Source of the DNA: a virus
Virus record (IMG/VR): IMGVR_UViG_3300010160_000003
Span: 1-64,000 of that record
Length of the DNA stretch: 64,000 nt
Reading direction: 5' to 3' (one strand)
Each line of letters begins with the position of its first letter. Position 1 is the first letter of the stretch. Positions 15,632 through 31,833 of this stretch are shown one piece after another. The notes beneath the pieces were generated by a model. That model did not search any database. It saw only the letters and a program-made list of their open reading frames with translations, and was not told the origin of the DNA. The translations under genes were made by a program, and so were the position numbers.

Positions 15632-15814
15632 ATGATGACACGCAAGGACTATGTAGCAACTGCTGAAATTCTAAATGGATTCAAAGATATAATCTTAGAT
15701 GAAATTACTTTTGCTGATTTGGTAGATGAATTTTCTCTAATGTTTGAAAGTGATAATCCAAAATTCTCACCAACAATTTTTGAAACCGCTTGCTATAAAA
15801 ATGCAGATGAATAA
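15632..15814 (+). CDS. Small early protein
   Basis: MTRKDY...DNPKF...F..AC pattern; directly follows the previous ORF. Confidence 0.6.
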   Translation: MMTRKDYVATAEILNGFKDIILDEITFADLVDEFSLMFESDNPKFSPTIFETACYKNADE

Positions 15815-15883
15815 ATAAAATAAAAGACCTGAGCAAGTCTGTGCAAAACTGCTCACTTTTTTATTGCAAAAAAACCCGGCCCG

Positions 15884-15904
15884 TTTTCCACAGGTTTATC
15901 CACA
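15884..15904 (+). promoter_or_regulatory. DnaA box pair
   Basis: TTTTCCACA at 15884 and TTATCCACA at 15896. Confidence 0.55.
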
Positions 15905-16061
15905 GGCAGGTTTAAGATACGCTTACGACACGCCCGAGATCTTGTGAGATTAATCACACCGAAAATGTATCCACATTGTGAGATTTATCCTCTACGATTT
16001 GAAAATGTCACCCGTATCTGATAGGATTACATAGTAATAATAAATTAACTAAAGAAAGAGG

Positions 16062-17577
16062 TTGCCCCCTATGGCTACTAAAGCATATTCTATCGTAGAT
16101 TTACTTGAAGGTAAATACTATCGCTCACACTCCCGTTATATTGACGGACTAATCACTTACGCAGAAAAGCGTGACTCAGTTTACTATGGCGAAGGCTTTG
16201 AGGCTTACCTTGTAAAAGTACGCCCTACCTATAAGGGATTCCCTGATTTGCCCAAAGCAGATTTTTATGCTACGATTGCAGTAAAGGTTGGAGAATAATA
16301 ATGGACTTCTATGATGACTACTATGAAACAGATATGATACGCCCAGATGTAAAAGATTGCTATTGCAAACTTCACTCAATTTGTACTAACTGCATGAAGG
16401 GATATAACTAATGGGAAACTTATTTGATGAGATTGGCACTTGCTACACTTGCTATGATGAAGGACTAATAATGAAAGATGAGTTTATTACAGATTTTTGC
16501 AACGATTGTGAAAAAGGCTCAGTCCTTGCTAATGAGTATGCTATATGGTATGCTGAAAATGAAATGAACGAATACACTAAAGAAATGGAAAATGCATAAT
16601 GGAATATCTATACGCAATAACAGTATCCTATGACGGCAACACACCTCATTGGACAGGTCGCTACTCAGACGCACTAACCGCCGTTGATGAGTTTAATAAG
16701 CATATTGATTGGGGATTTGCAGATGAATACGCAACAGTTAATTTATCTGAGCCAAGTGGAAAGATGCACACACGCACTTTCTATCGTGAAGGCAGAAGGG
16801 TTGTGACTAAGTAATGGAAATTTTTGAGTTTAATACTTTCATAGATGTCGAGGCAGAGTCGTATGATGAAGCCATTGATGTCTTTCAATTCCAATTAAAG
16901 TATGGAATAAATAAAGATAATGTCTATGTCGCAGACATAAAGCAATTAACTAACAACAACGAAAGCGTAGAGGTATAAATAATGGGAAGCGTAACAGCAA
17001 TTGGATTAGCAGATAGCGTATTAGATTTAGAAACTCAATTACTCTATCACTTGAAGGGTAATCACTATCCACCAGTACCAGCAGAAATGGTAACACCATG
17101 CATTGAAGCCATTGATGCAGCCTATGATGAAGATTTTAACCGCATGATTGACATGCCAAAGGTCGGTGACTTTCAGATTCTCTATAAAGACTCAACGCAA
17201 GCACCAGCGTGGGCAATTATTGAACAACACCACTTGGATTGGTTTATCACACCAACAGAGGAGGACTAATGACAGATTTTTATATTCCCCACTCAAAGTA
17301 TTGTGATTGCAACGAATGCCTAACTATTGAGGAGAATGAATAAATGTCTGATACAATAAAAAACGTGGAACTTAGATTTGCTGATAACTTAACACCCTCT
17401 CAACTTATGCCAGGAGATCTAGTCAAGGTTGATGGTGAGTGTGTAACTATTGAAACCCTTACAGAAAATAAACACGGGTTTAATATTTATGCTAGAGATG
17501 ATTTTAACGAAGAGGTTCATTTTTATTTATTTGATGATGAAACTATTGAGTGGTATGTATTTTTTGAAGAAGAATAA
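16062..17577 (+). CDS. Operon of small early hypothetical proteins (16062-16298, 16411-16599, 16599-16814, 16982-17269, 17344-17577 and shorter ORFs)
   Basis: Tightly packed co-oriented ORFs with Shine-Dalgarno sites and TAATG overlaps after the promoter at 16006. Confidence 0.6.
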
Positions 17578-17847
17578 TCACTAAACTAATTTTTAATCCT
17601 TCCCATCACAAAAAACCGCCCGGCACATTTTTTATAGAATGTCAAGTATTTACGTAATTTGACATTTTTCCCCATGTATGCTAAGATTAATTTATGAAAA
17701 CAAGAAAAAACCCCGAGGAATTGCGTAGACTTATGGAATTACGCCGTAGTAATGCAGCCTCAGCCGTACCCTCAAAGAAAAACTATTCTAGAAAAAATAA
17801 ATGTCAGTCCCTTATGCTAGAATTAAAGAAAGAAAGCGAGTCCCCTA

Positions 17848-18570
17848 ATGACTAAACTACTAAGAAGCAAAGATAGAAAAGTAACTAATGCCGTATCCCC
17901 TAATGGTAAGACTGCCACTATTGCTAATACTTTTGGTCTTCCCGCAGGAAAAGCATATTCATGTCCTGGAGCCACAACAGTATGCGAAAGTGTATGCTAT
18001 GCAGGAAAGTTAGAAAAAATATTCCCTAGTGTTAAAGTTAATCTATTACACAATTGGGATTTACTAAAAAATGCAGACGGTGTTACTATGACAACACTAC
18101 TTAATGAAATGATAGATGAGTTTATTGTTGATTGTGAAAAGAAAAATGCAGAAAAGTTATTCCGTATCCACTGGGACGGAGATTTTTTCAATGACACTTA
18201 TGCAATGGCATGGCGTGAGGTTATTCTTAATTATCCTACCGTTCAATTCTGGGTATACACTAGAGTTTCATCTGCGGCTCTTATTCTAAAGGGAATACAA
18301 AACCTATCTCTCTATTTTTCTGCAGATAGCGAAAATATCAAAACTGCCGTTGACTTAAAATTAAATAATGGTATTCGCATGGCGTACCTTGCTAAGACAT
18401 TCGCAATAGGACAAGCAGACATAAAAGAAATGATAGGTAAGCCTAGTGCTAAGTGTCCTGAGAATAATAAACAAATTCCGCTAATCTCAACCAAAGGTTC
18501 GGCTTGCGTTTCTTGCTCATTGTGTGTATACTCTAAGAGTGACATAATTTTTTCTAGTAGTAAGAAGTGA
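17848..18570 (+). CDS. GP88-family protein (Cys-cluster, radical-SAM-like fold)
   Basis: FGLPAGKAYSCPGAT..CESVCYA, FRIHWDGDF and FWVYTR motifs. Confidence 0.65.
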   Translation: MTKLLRSKDRKVTNAVSPNGKTATIANTFGLPAGKAYSCPGATTVCESVCYAGKLEKIFPSVKVNLLHNWDLLKNADGVTMTTLLNEMIDEFIVDCEKKNAEKLFRIHWDGDFFNDTYAMAWREVILNYPTVQFWVYTRVSSAALILKGIQNLSLYFSADSENIKTAVDLKLNNGIRMAYLAKTFAIGQADIKEMIGKPSAKCPENNKQIPLISTKGSACVSCSLCVYSKSDIIFSSSKK

Positions 18571-18895
18571 GATAAAATGGAAGGCTATAAAATATTTTTA
18601 TTTTTTTTATTATTTTTATTTATTTTATTTTTAAACCAGTGAAAACTGGCCCGGCACAAAAATATTTAAAAGTCAAATTTTAACCTTTAAGAAGATCAAT
18701 TTATTTCCCCGATTACGTATGAGATTAATCACACCCAAAAACCTCACTAGGATTTGCTTTTATGACATTTTTATGTCATACTTAGGGTATAAACAAATAA
18801 CAATTCCAAATAGTGAGATTTTTAGGTATTCAACTTGAAAATGTCAGTAGGAAATGTTATACTTAAAATATCAACTAAACAGAAAAGAGAAAATC

Positions 18896-19060
18896 ATGTC
18901 AGTAGCAACCGCAACTTATCGTGTAGGAGATACCTATACAACACAGAAGTCAAAAGTAACAGGAGTCATTGAGGAAATCACAACTCTTGCAAATGGTAAT
19001 GTTCGTGTTAAGTTAAATGTAGAAGGCAACACTCGCTACACAACTTGGACAGCAAAGTAA
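18896..19060 (+). CDS. Small SH3-like early protein
   Basis: YRVGD...GVIEEI...VRVKL; start MSVATAT has a Shine-Dalgarno. Confidence 0.55.
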   Translation: MSVATATYRVGDTYTTQKSKVTGVIEEITTLANGNVRVKLNVEGNTRYTTWTAK

Positions 19061-19141
19061 TCTAATTACTTATTCCTGAGTATGAAATAAAACTACTCAC
19101 GCAATACCCCCTAATAATCCACCAAAGAAAAGAGAAAACAA

Positions 19142-19564
19142 ATGGCTAGAGCAAAAGCAATAAATGTAAAAATCCCAACAGTACGAGTAATCGCAGGACT
19201 AGAGGAAGCACTCGCTACCCTAGAAGCAGACTACGCAACACAATCAGCAAAAGAAGCAAAGTACGAAATTGCTCGCAAGGCTTGGCAAAAAGAAGTTCAG
19301 GACTTTGCTATCGCAAACATCAGCAAGGCAGAAAACTTCCGCACCAACTTCCGTTCTTGGTCAAACAATCTCAACATTGACTTTGACTTGACAGTATTAG
19401 AAAAGGACTTGCCTAAAGAGCCTGAGCAGGACTACGAAGTAATCCATCAGCACACTTATCGTGAGTCAAAGAAAGAAATCACAAACGCAATTCGTCTGTT
19501 AAAAATGACAGATGAGGAAACAGTAAGCACAAGCACTTACAATGCTATTGCTCAGTATCTCTAA
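19142..19564 (+). CDS. Hypothetical early protein
   Basis: 140 aa ORF with Shine-Dalgarno. Confidence 0.7.
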   Translation: MARAKAINVKIPTVRVIAGLEEALATLEADYATQSAKEAKYEIARKAWQKEVQDFAIANISKAENFRTNFRSWSNNLNIDFDLTVLEKDLPKEPEQDYEVIHQHTYRESKKEITNAIRLLKMTDEETVSTSTYNAIAQYL

Positions 19565-19777
19565 ATAATCCAACACCTGAGTATGTGTATAAACTGCTCA
19601 CACAATTAAATGATGGTCTGTCCGTTCCGACGGCATAGGTAAGAGTGTGACCCTTTAACCAAAGGGTATTGAGTCATAACGGCACACCGCCATCCACCCC
19701 TCCCCAGGATCCAGGGAAATTGACAAATGTCAGACCCTCATAGTATAATTAATATAACCAACAAGAAGGAGCCCCAA

Positions 19778-20275
19778 ATGGGATTAGATATGTACCTTAG
19801 TGCAAGAAAGCACTTAGAAAAAATCAACTGGAAAGCACTACAAGGAAATGATGAACTATCTTATTCATCTCCTGAAGCCGTATATCCTAAGTTTAATGAC
19901 CTAATGGAAATCACACAACTATCAGATGTTGCTACAGATATTTATGGAGCAGAGGTATCAGTTACTTGTGCCTACTGGCGCAAGGCTAATCAGATACACA
20001 ACTGGTTCGTTACAAATGTTCAAGGCGATAACGATAACTGCGGAGAATACTATGTATCACAAGATAAACTAACAGAATTAATGGTTTTATGCGAACACGC
20101 ACTTGAAAATAAAGACCCAGCACTACTACCCCCACAAGAAGGATTTTTCTTTGGGGGCACAGATATTGATGAGTGGTATTGGAATCAACTAAAGAATACT
20201 ATTACTCAGTTAAAGCGTATCTTTGCTTTCCCTGAAATTAATAATCTCTCATTCTACTATAACTCATCTTGGTAA
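19778..20275 (+). CDS. Conserved phage protein (MGLDMY / YWRKANQIH family)
   Basis: MGLDMYL, YWRKANQIHNWF, GFFFG and YYNSSW motifs; AAGGAG Shine-Dalgarno. Confidence 0.7.
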   Translation: MGLDMYLSARKHLEKINWKALQGNDELSYSSPEAVYPKFNDLMEITQLSDVATDIYGAEVSVTCAYWRKANQIHNWFVTNVQGDNDNCGEYYVSQDKLTELMVLCEHALENKDPALLPPQEGFFFGGTDIDEWYWNQLKNTITQLKRIFAFPEINNLSFYYNSSW

Positions 20276-20337
20276 TTGACAATTGTCAGTACCCTGCGAT
20301 ATACTTAAACTAACCAACTAACAGAAAGAGGCCCCCA

Positions 20338-20751
20338 ATGGAGCAAACAGTAATACCAGCAACAACGCAAGAATTTCTACAATCTCAGGTATCAATTAAA
20401 GATGAGCGTATTGCTCAACTAGAAGAGCATATCCAAAAACTAACACAACGTTCATATACAGATTCTGCAGAGCGCAACCGTATGGTTGAGGGTATGCAAG
20501 AGTGGACACTTAATGAACTAGAAAATGAAGACATAACAGAAGAGCAAGCAGAAGCAATTGCTGAAATTATGGGCTTTGAACTTACAAAAGAGTTTGAGGT
20601 TGAAGTTACTGTTCTTTATTCTGTTACAGTTAATGCACGTAATGAGGAGCAGGCTACTAATGCAATTCACGATATTGATTTTGATACCGTTGACTATAAC
20701 TCAGACTCAATTCAATACTTGTCATCATCAATTGATAGAGTAGATATTTAG
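20338..20751 (+). CDS. Hypothetical coiled-coil early protein
   Basis: ORF with Shine-Dalgarno after the promoter at 20284. Confidence 0.65.
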   Translation: MEQTVIPATTQEFLQSQVSIKDERIAQLEEHIQKLTQRSYTDSAERNRMVEGMQEWTLNELENEDITEEQAEAIAEIMGFELTKEFEVEVTVLYSVTVNARNEEQATNAIHDIDFDTVDYNSDSIQYLSSSIDRVDI

Positions 20752-21012
20752 TAGGGGGCTACTAATAGACATGCCGAATGTCTATAAACTAGGCAAGGGA
20801 CCTAAGCATTGTCCACGTAAACTGCTTATTTTTTTTATTTATTCAGTTGCATAAAATGTGGGCCGGGGCAGTTGTGATCAATATCACATTGTGAATTACG
20901 ACACAGTTACGATATGCCCGAATTGCCCCATGTCTGCTTATACGATTTGACTTTGTCAGCCCTGTCTGCTAAACTTAGTATAACAATCAAACAGAAAAGG
21001 AAAAATAAACTC

Positions 21013-22029
21013 ATGGCACATGAACTAGAAACACAAAATGGAGTAGCCTCTTTCGCTTCATTTCGTGAACCTGCTTGGCATGGATTGGGTACTGTATTCA
21101 CAGAGGAAAAATCTACATCAGAAATGTTGGCTTCTGCCAATCTTAATGGTTGGAACGTTCGTCTAGAGGATTTAGTGACCCCTTCACATTTATCAAGCGA
21201 CAAAGAATATCAGTATGTCGTTCGCACTAACCCTACTGATAATTCTCAAACCGATATTCTTGGTGTTGTCGGTGAGCGATACCATGTAATGCAAAATGAG
21301 GATTTATTCTCATTTGGAGATAATATCCTAGACGGCGGTGGTCGTTGGGAAACTGCTGGCTCAATCAAGGGTGGTCGTGTTGTATTTGGTGCGTTAGCAC
21401 TAGAGCGTGAAACTATCCTAGACCCTAATGGTGTTGCTGATAAGGTAAAAACTTATTTACTTATTAACACTTCCCATGACGGTTCTATTGCAATTCAAGC
21501 AAGCATAACACCCGTTCGTGTTGTGTGTGCTAATACTCTCAATATGGCACTCAACACTACAAAAAAGAAAAATGGTATCAAGCAATCTTTCAAGATTCGC
21601 CATACGCAAACCGCACAAGGTAAAGTGCAAGTGGCTCGTGAAACTCTTGGGCTTGCTAATGCATACATGGATTCATTTGACATCATGGCAAAAACTTTAT
21701 TTGCTACTGAGGTCAATGCTAAAATGTTCAATGAGATTATTCTCGCTTCATATCCTAAGCCTGAAAAAGATGCTAAGGGTGCAATTAAAAAGTGGGAAAA
21801 TAAAGTTGATACTATCAACGACATTTACACAGGCGAGTTTAACGGCATGATTGCTGGTAATGCTTGGGGTGCGTTCAATGCACTAACTGAGCGACTAGAC
21901 TGGTATCGTTCTGCTCGTGGTGGTTCTAACGAGTCAATTCTTGCAAGTGCAAGTGGATTTGACCCTGCAATTAACGCAGAGAAAAATCGTTTGCTCAAAG
22001 TTGTAAAAAATGTAATGCAACTCGCATAA
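21013..22029 (+). CDS. DUF932 / LGT_TIGR03299 family protein
   Basis: MAHELE, PAWHGLG, ETAGSIKGGRVVF, NTSHDGS and PVRVVCANTL motifs. Confidence 0.85.
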   Translation: MAHELETQNGVASFASFREPAWHGLGTVFTEEKSTSEMLASANLNGWNVRLEDLVTPSHLSSDKEYQYVVRTNPTDNSQTDILGVVGERYHVMQNEDLFSFGDNILDGGGRWETAGSIKGGRVVFGALALERETILDPNGVADKVKTYLLINTSHDGSIAIQASITPVRVVCANTLNMALNTTKKKNGIKQSFKIRHTQTAQGKVQVARETLGLANAYMDSFDIMAKTLFATEVNAKMFNEIILASYPKPEKDAKGAIKKWENKVDTINDIYTGEFNGMIAGNAWGAFNALTERLDWYRSARGGSNESILASASGFDPAINAEKNRLLKVVKNVMQLA

Positions 22030-22067
22030 CAAAATAATCCTGAGCATGATTGAAAACTGCTCCGCAT

Positions 22068-22144
22068 GATTGCGTAGAATAGTTGGTTAATTCGCTAGCC
22101 TGTCACGCTAGAGATCGTGGGTTCAAGTCCCATCGCAATCGCCA
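22068..22144 (+). tRNA. tRNA-Asp (GTC) with encoded CCA
   Basis: Acceptor GATTGCG/CGCAATC; anticodon arm CTAGC-CTGTCAC-GCTAG; T-loop TTCAAGT. Confidence 0.9.
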
Positions 22145-31757: not shown

Positions 31758-31833
31758 CCCTAAGTATGCCCTGCGGTTTCTACCCGCTTGAAAGGCTAAC
31801 GGATACATGCAGGTTCAATCCCTGTCTTAGGGA
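31758..31833 (+). tRNA. Atypical tRNA-like RNA (TCT/Arg anticodon, no D-arm)
   Basis: Acceptor CCCTAAG/CTTAGGG; T-arm GCAGG-TTCAATC-CCTGT; GCGG-TTTCTAC-CCGC arm; D-arm missing. Confidence 0.6.

Follow-up and report, generated by a model that had tools for sequence, protein, structure and literature searches.

The first 64,000 nucleotides (nt) of the single-contig virus record IMGVR_UViG_3300010160_000003 (hereafter the window) contained six copies of a self-contained H-type RNA pseudoknot of about 28 nt, named PK1 to PK6. The element is uncatalogued, as it has no family in Rfam 15, and it belongs to a very large family that is widespread in many unrelated phages. Based on its sequence and its placement between genes, the knot may be a compact mechanical barrier that separates neighbouring RNA segments in polycistronic phage messages. 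This reading is tentative and is given somewhat less than even probability. The whole record comprised 100,390 bp with 36% G+C, and the window encoded a DnaE-type polymerase, a terminase and tail proteins.

Fold, covariation and distribution of the family

The short consensus of the element was NNNC-CU-RAGYA-W-GNNN-NWAAAC-URCUY, which was numbered as N-3 N-2 W-1 C0 / C1 U2 / R3 A4 G5 Y6 A7 / W8 / G9 W10 N11 N12 / N13 W14 A15 A16 A17 C18 / U19 R20 C21 U22 Y23 / A24. Stem 1 comprised 4 bp of free sequence with an invariant closing C-G pair. Loop 1 was C(U). Stem 2 comprised 5-6 bp, usually (U)GAGYA/URCUC(A), and was followed by one junction base. Loop 3 was A-rich and ended in AAAC; judging from the known structures of other compact pseudoknots, it would be expected in the minor groove of stem 1. 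Conservation was confined to positions -3 to +24 with none beyond, showing that the element is self-contained.

A first exact-pattern scan of IMG/VR gave at least 148 matches at at least 119 loci. Among the matches listed, the internal gap was exactly 7 nt in 111 of 148, and stem 1 held at least 3 bp in 145 of 148, with a different sequence in nearly every copy. Position G9 was G in 116 of 117 copies among the matches listed, though the scan did not demand it. The initial annotation of this DNA had called the AAAC linker invariant. All patterns used demanded AAAC and the CCU start, so that the invariance of both in the wider family is partly by construction.

Covariation of stem 2 was evident in a search that demanded only a 4-bp stem 1, CCU, G9 and AAAC. 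It returned 319 matches with five of five stem-2 pairs, compared with 0 in shuffled sequences. Nineteen non-canonical stem 2 sequences were fully paired, and the rare variants were compensated at all five pairs, for example GGACA/UGUCC, GGUCA/UGACC (a transversion pair), GAACA/UGUUC and GGGCG/CGCCC. At Y6:R20, the pairs were C-G (353), U-G (91), U-A (30) and C-A (12, with 31.5 expected under independence), so that C-A was clearly rarer and U-A commoner than independence would give. In alignment A1, whose rows were selected for pairing, 95.4% of the cells of the named structure were paired versus 75.9% after shuffling. Its covariation score was 0.562, against 0.188 for shuffles, none of 500 being as high, and 0.04-0.16 when the partners were slid. 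The additional pair U2-A24 was present in approximately 70% of the copies. The terminal pair R3:Y23 tolerated A.C, as IMG/VR scans for AAGYA..CUU and AAGYA..CUC both gave matches with stem 1 paired; the totals of these scans are lower bounds and the pair is not usable as a count-based covariation test. Altogether, the family-wide pairing counts lend good support to the initial proposal of a compact cis-acting H-type pseudoknot that is oriented with the genes and covaries in both stems.

The element was found across many bacterial phyla. A scan of one genome per prokaryotic species gave at least 125 matches. Among the matches listed, 107 of 125 had at least 3 stem-1 pairs, and most lay among small phage-like open reading frames (ORFs), in metagenome-assembled genomes and isolates of many phyla. 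Using two 32-mers as blast queries, the motif was detected in 144 and 60 isolate phage records (204). The hosts and phages included Staphylococcus, Vibrio, Arthrobacter, Bacillus, Lactobacillus, Synechococcus, Nostoc, Microcystis, Mycobacterium, Paracoccus, Lentibacter, Fusobacterium, Moorella and crAss-like phages, and the motif was also present on some plasmids. Thus, the family is confined neither to phages nor to hosts of groups bearing RNase J. Acinetobacter plasmid pYH16056-6 (L489:701-731) and Vibrio phage D456 (L476:701-728) held variant copies; of these two gammaproteobacterial variants, one had a 4-bp stem 2 with a longer loop 2 and one had CC as loop 1.

Phages 80alpha, phi11, T4, T5 and lambda showed nothing above chance-level matches to a loose pattern, and BillNye, a distant relative, had no copy. 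These absences may explain the lack of a prior description. The closest DnaE had 54% identity and originated from Streptomyces phages, and blastn of the region against isolates returned tRNA and short matches only. In class-wide genome scans, 10 of 401 Bacilli genomes had a match versus 9 for the control, and 4 of 401 Gammaproteobacteria versus 8. The pattern is therefore uninformative for cellular genomes, where its frequency is close to that expected by chance.

The comparison with Rfam 15 that had been proposed as a check of novelty found no matching family. At the gathering threshold only two tRNAs were matched in the window, at E<=10 in 6.9 kb no match overlapped the copies, and a 51-nt search space around PK2 gave nothing relevant. 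Literature searches by topic returned no account of the element, and those by literal sequence strings returned unrelated primers only. It was not discussed in the keyword-searched passages of a phage RNA survey of 10,006 candidates (PMC10690425).

The six copies in the window

All six elements of the initial annotation were found by sequence inspection at their claimed sites, every one on the + strand (Table 1). Five of them fitted the strict pattern CCT[GA]AG[CT]A-N5-14-AAACT[GA]CT[CT]. This pattern had five matches on the + strand of the window and 0 on the - strand, compared with 1 match in total over 300 dinucleotide shuffles, and there was no match beyond those five anywhere in the whole 100,390-bp genome. 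A covariance model (R1), another of the proposed checks, was trained on 123 family members, with only PK3 and PK6 included from the window. It recovered the untrained copies PK1 (28.9 bits, E 1e-4), PK2 (26.5 bits, E 4e-4) and PK5 (15.4 bits, E 0.12), while the trained copies PK3 and PK6 scored 41.5 and 38.6 bits. Nothing credible apart from these five copies was detected in the window by the model. The distances from stop codon to stem 1 (10, 12, 8, 13 and 5-6 nt) and the location of PK6 directly ahead of tRNA-Asp were as first described.

Table 1. Copies of the pseudoknot in the window and the adjoining tRNA gene.
Feature	Position	Strand	Sequence and pairing	Neighbourhood
PK1	15825-15855	+	AGAC-CU-GAGCA-A-GUCU-GUGCAAAAC-UGCUC-A; stem 1 AGAC/GUCU; stem 2 GAGCA/UGCUC; long loop 3 GUGCAAAAC	stop of ORF 15632-15814 is 10 nt upstream; U6 run after knot, 15857-15862
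PK2	19073-19098	+	stem 1 UUC/GAA, 3 bp only; stem 2 GAGUA/UACUC	12 nt after stop of ORF 18854-19060; start of ORF 19142-19564 is 43 nt past knot end
PK3	19573-19599	+	stem 1 ACAC/GUGU; stem 2 GAGUA/UGCUC, one G.U pair	8 nt after stop of ORF 19142-19564
PK4	20765-20795	+	divergent; stem 1 AUAGAC/GUCUAU; loop 1 AU; one extra loop-2 base	13 nt after stop of ORF 20338-20751; in tandem with PK5
PK5	20798-20828	+	stem 1 GGAC/GUCC; stem 2 AAGCA/UGCUU; loop 2 UU	U8 run after knot, 20829-20836
PK6	22035-22062	+	stem 1 UAAUC/GAUUG; stem 2 GAGCA/UGCUC	5 nt after stop of phrog_1221 gene (21013-22029); 5 nt before tRNA-Asp
tRNA-Asp(GTC)	22068-22144	+

PK4 was detected neither by the strict pattern nor by the covariance model. 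Its stem 2, GCCGA/UAGGC, had four of five pairs (G-C, C-G, C-G, G.A, A-U), two of them doubly compensated. The initial annotation had given this stem as UGCC/GGCA; the pairing was correct and the register shifted. PK4 kept the architecture of the family and, judged by the shared upstream flank GCUACUAAUA, occupied the same position as a canonical copy in the related contig L009. In stem 2 of PK5, a change from G-C to A-U was compensated. Related contigs also had a knot after the ortholog of the ORF that precedes PK3, with another stem 1. Ordinary folding mainly recovered stem 2, as expected for a pseudoknot, and stem 1 only within the tandem fold of PK4 and PK5. A promoter cannot fit between PK6 and tRNA-Asp, and the tRNA is therefore co-transcribed through the knot.

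Further features of the window were recorded. Positions 16062-17577 (+) held one unit of eight small early ORFs, tightly packed or overlapping, with no knot inside; knots were located only at the ends of units or of loosely spaced cistrons. A GC-rich motif of the GGCCCGG/GGGCCGGG type, with no good hairpin, occurred at 15877, 17618, 18650, 20861 and 22154 (+), just past each early unit (knot, U-run or tRNA) and ahead of the next sigma70-like promoter. The GC-rich stretch 19611-19696 (+), from PK3 to the next promoter, gave a long closed fold of -31 kcal/mol, which was not above shuffles (z = -0.6). A tRNA-like sequence at 31758-31833 (+) adjoined tRNA-Ile(TAT). It scored 24.5 bits with the Rfam tRNA model, under the gathering score of 29, and had a 7-bp acceptor stem, a good T-arm, a nearly absent D-arm, a long variable region and no ARAGORN call.

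Placement relative to genes and possible role

The spacer between a same-strand stop codon and the knot was at least 5 nt. Distances to C0, counted from the last base of the stop codon, had a sharp onset at 8 nt, corresponding to a 5-nt spacer, with counts of 17, 12, 11, 10 and 9 at 8-12 nt and a decay thereafter. Almost no distances below 8 nt were found, and random positions showed no such peak. TAA was the commonest stop before the knot. In a terminating ribosome whose A site is occupied by the stop codon, approximately 5-6 more nt lie in the channel. From this geometry, we infer that the knot sits just outside the reach of the terminating ribosome.

By crude gene calls, a same-strand gene was located upstream of 352 of approximately 429 intergenic copies, whereas 43 were at convergent and 15 at divergent junctions; same-strand genes flanked both sides in 261 copies. 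The order knot then tRNA was observed 17 times, with 15 of these knots at 4-13 nt from a tRNA-Asp, Arg or Ser, and the order tRNA then knot once. In Arthrobacter phage Amigo, the knot lay between SSB and tRNA-Gly with 2 nt between knot and tRNA. A U-run started within 4 nt after the knot in 77 of 486 copies (16%), including PK1, PK5 and the copy of S. aureus phage B166. A Shine-Dalgarno sequence with a start codon was present within 40 nt downstream of 23% of the copies, and the distance to the next Shine-Dalgarno sequence was broad. The Acinetobacter plasmid copy was situated at a gene end opposite a convergent rep gene. Orthologous genes of related contigs retained the knot with differing stem 1 sequences. 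There was no common upstream gene family, and the Pfam matches (DUF7249, DUF3768, MarR) were unrelated.

In Firmicutes phages, a single knot repeatedly separated the gene for the portal or a minor head protein from those for scaffold and capsid. This was observed in five unrelated isolates, namely S. aureus phage B166 (L475), Lacticaseibacillus phage R3.3 (L473), Lactobacillus phage phiEF-1.1 (L486), thermophilic phage D6E (L487) and Bacillus phage Page (L484). A knot just ahead of scaffold and major capsid genes was also present in 27 metagenomic loci. Clustering of the neighbouring genes of 486 copies placed the scaffold families phrog_172 and phrog_194 solely downstream of the knot, followed by major head proteins of three families, while the upstream gene at this junction varied. 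The initial description of the element as lying downstream of early genes thus holds for the phage of the window but not elsewhere, where it was found in late head operons and on plasmids.

These positions suggest that the knot could act as a folded mechanical barrier marking the boundaries of RNA segments. Packed just outside the reach of the terminating ribosome, it would stay folded while the upstream gene is translated. The transcript would be cut or ended downstream, by RNase P at a tRNA, by an endonuclease in the spacer or with a 3' end at a U-run, and the knot would then halt processive RNA-degrading enzymes. As a result, each adjoining cistron would have a separate lifetime. Judging from sequence and context, we think that the commonest role would be shielding the 3' end of the upstream gene from 3'-to-5' exonucleases. 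The scaffold and capsid context suits protection of the downstream message and the tRNA, U-run and convergent contexts suit the upstream one; the element is therefore described simply as a boundary barrier, whichever side it would protect. Of the functions proposed initially, a roadblock or a processing boundary would fit best.

Several observations weigh against this reading. Where the knot is succeeded by a canonical terminator hairpin, there seems little need for another 3' barrier. The placement ahead of scaffold and major capsid genes fits the protection or insulation of a downstream, highly expressed message at least equally well. The near-invariant sequence of stem 2 is not needed for a plain steric block and hints at a specific tertiary fold or partner. 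Finally, the sharp spacing from the stop codon could reflect genome compaction together with any need to stay folded, and indicates no single mechanism.

The opposite direction of protection is unlikely, yet it accounts for part of the data. As a 5'-to-3' roadblock and phage counterpart of exonuclease-resistant RNAs (xrRNAs), the knot would halt RNase J or a scanning RNase E and either protect the downstream segment, such as a scaffold-capsid sub-message, or leave small decoy remnants. It resembles in architecture and sequence the coremin motif and its Watson-Crick variant, which stall Xrn1 and ribosomes (PMC10520033, PMC10321173), and in Firmicutes phages it stands directly upstream of scaffold and major head genes with varying genes before it. 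The organism tallies of both blast searches were led by hosts from groups bearing RNase J, and Escherichia, Klebsiella, Salmonella and Pseudomonas were absent from these tallies, which list only the commonest organism names for two stem-1-specific queries. RNase J is missing from most beta- and gamma-proteobacteria, and most of the latter have only an RNase E/G-type enzyme (PMC3997798). However, copies were present in Vibrio phages and on Acinetobacter plasmids, which belong to the gamma-proteobacteria, and the host link to RNase J is a lead only. A U-run, likely a transcript end, came after 16% of the copies, the 43 copies at convergent junctions have nothing downstream to shield, and tRNAs following a knot require no 5' protection. 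The second hairpin of coremin was also not enriched after the knot.

An effect on translation is improbable as the main function. A knot at the leading edge of the terminating ribosome would block post-termination sliding and uncouple the next cistron. This would agree with a knot that lies as near to the stop codon as possible but never closer than 5 nt, with its presence at the border of portal and scaffold genes, where expression must shift sharply, and with the tightly coupled early genes at 16062-17577, which had no knot. In vitro, coremin-type knots are further known to promote frameshifting and to make ribosomes stall (PMC10520033, PMC10321173). Many copies, however, were followed by a tRNA, a U-run or a convergent gene instead of a downstream ORF, and the distance to the next Shine-Dalgarno sequence was broad. 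A -1 frameshift or readthrough stimulator, which would need a slippery heptamer or leaky stop 5-9 nt before it and a long ORF running on in the new frame, was rejected: the median frame extension was 7 (0), 9 (-1) and 4 (+1) codons, no X XXY YYZ consensus preceded the stops and the spacing had no 3-nt periodicity.

Transcription pausing or termination, with stem 2 as a terminator hairpin stabilised by stem 1, is very improbable. The U-runs that adjoin stem 2 in PK1, PK5, phage B166 and the remainder of the 77 copies would fit, but 84% of the copies had none. PK6 and 15 other copies were situated a few nt before co-transcribed tRNAs, PK2 lay between two cistrons with no promoter between them, and stopping just ahead of scaffold and capsid genes would be counter-productive. 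The termination modulator among the initial suggestions is thus excluded as a general intrinsic terminator, since PK6 is transcribed through to tRNA-Asp, 15 copies lay 4-13 nt before co-transcribed tRNAs and U-runs were rare.

We give as little credence to a role in RNA processing. The knot would then be a small RNA that cleaves itself, or would be cut by a universal endonuclease such as RNase P, which would recognise a mimic of the acceptor stem as in turnip yellow mosaic virus (TYMV). The host-independent occurrence and the conserved core would suit a ribozyme, yet no known ribozyme family of Rfam 15 matched and a cut in loop 1 would wreck the fold that is under selection. U2 before R3, the pair R3:Y23 and A24 resemble tRNA positions -1, 1:72 and 73, and ACC(A) was commoner after Y23 than at other offsets (21 versus approximately 8). 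This signal was weak, and the tRNA-like acceptor mimic was rejected: ACCA was present in only 19 of 486 copies, and the coaxial stack of 9-10 bp without a T-loop falls short of the TYMV type with its 12-bp stack and 3' NCCA.

The least probable role is that of an aptamer for a conserved protein or a small ligand. The sequence of stem 2, loop 1 C(U) and the AAAC of loop 3 are conserved far beyond pairing needs. On the other hand, W8, which corresponds to the ligand site of compact pseudoknot aptamers such as preQ1-I, varied between U (241), A (191), C (43) and G (11) in 486 copies. The adjoining gene families were unrelated, the element followed genes rather than preceding them, and no co-occurring partner gene was present in the flanks examined. 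The ligand aptamer of the initial annotation is for these reasons unlikely, and a preQ1-I riboswitch was rejected on the same variation of W8 and position after unrelated genes.

If the barrier role is true, the element would be among the smallest and most widespread cis-acting RNA devices of bacterial viruses. Phages would adjust the output of single genes within long transcripts by a portable 28-nt module, and a link would arise between phage RNA biology and the coremin-type xrRNAs known from plant and fungal viruses. The element would also supply synthetic operons with a small part, independent of the host, by which genes could be stabilised or insulated. Its conserved placement ahead of scaffold and capsid genes makes it testable how late operons reach very unequal protein yields, and cultivable systems exist with S. 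aureus Phietavirus, Lacticaseibacillus phage R3.3 and Bacillus phage Page.

Comparison with known RNA elements

The preQ1-I aptamer (RF00522) is an H-type pseudoknot of approximately 30-34 nt, located in the 5' UTR of queuosine or transport genes, with an A-rich loop 3 ending in AAC and a ligand-pairing C in loop 2. The phage element shares its similar size, topology and A-rich loop 3. It differs by having a variable loop-2 base and a location that is not upstream of queuosine genes, and it had no Rfam match even in the 51-nt search space.

Intercistronic 3' stabilisers include the hairpins of repetitive extragenic palindromic sequences and bacterial interspersed mosaic elements (REP/BIME), as between malE and malF, and the RNase III-processed hairpins of T7 early mRNA. 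They occupy the same site between cistrons of one transcript, and the job proposed here, differing stabilities of segments, is the same. These stabilisers are simple hairpins, some of which need RNase III, whereas the phage element is a pseudoknot of conserved sequence across phages of many phyla.

Compact frameshift pseudoknots of the luteovirus and enamovirus type are known from beet western yellows virus (BWYV), PEMV-1 (pea enation mosaic virus 1) and sugarcane yellow leaf virus (ScYLV). As in the phage element, their two stems are short and coaxial, only one base forms the junction, loop 1 is short and opens with C, and the A-rich loop 3 ends close to stem 2. The phage element has its stem lengths the other way round (4 and 5-6 bp). 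It also differed in its location after stop codons, not in overlaps, and neither a slippery heptamer nor an extension of the -1, +1 or readthrough frame was found.

The closest likeness was to coremin (xrRNA-C) and its Watson-Crick variant (xrRNA-WCC), which were described by Dilweg and Olsthoorn from beny-, cucumo- and other plant and fungal RNA viruses (PMC6546385, PMC10520033, PMC10321173). Coremin is defined by a 4-bp hairpin 1 with the loop YGAD (or YGNNAD), followed by a conserved spacer of 8-10 nt (..GUUAAACUAC). A 5'-to-3' exoribonuclease is halted by it one nt before hairpin 1, and a second hairpin (hp2) right after the spacer is required for resistance to Xrn1 (PMC6546385, PMC10520033, PMC10321173). 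Both elements are compact and lie in untranslated or intergenic regions. In each, C-G closes a first hairpin of 4 bp, C is the first base of its loop, which contains GA(G), and loop and spacer pair as GAG/CUC. The spacer ..UUAAACU.. is common to coremin (GUCCGAAGACGUUAAACUAC) and the phage element (for example CGUC-CUGAGCAU-GACG-UUAAAC-UGCUC), and the natural coremin heptaloop CGAGUAA is one base apart from the phage loop CUGAGUAA.

The two also differ. The phage loop comprises 8 nt (CURAGYAW), stem 2 has 5-6 bp and the spacer WWAAACU continues into RCUY, whereas coremin has a loop of 4 nt and 2-3 pairs. In 45 of 486 copies, a hairpin with 4 bp or more began no further than 4 nt after the knot, compared with 55 (offset), 93 (upstream flank) and 56 (shuffled) in the controls; a strict coremin xrRNA was rejected on this lack of enrichment. 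Coremin acts on Xrn1 in eukaryotic hosts, whereas the phage element occurs in bacteria, which to our knowledge lack Xrn1. In the likeness to xrRNA-WCC, the phage bases G3A4G5 pair canonically with C21U22C23, with compensatory changes at each pair; the bridging base of xrRNA-WCC is a conserved G, in contrast to C(U) in the phage element. It is possible, though rather doubtful, that a 28-nt counterpart of the coremin-type xrRNA is common to phages from many phyla of bacteria. It would be a minimal pseudoknot that stops degrading enzymes, and perhaps ribosomes, with no host-specific partner, and would serve as punctuation setting the relative stability of cistrons, for example by releasing a long-lived scaffold-capsid sub-message from the late transcript of Firmicutes phages.

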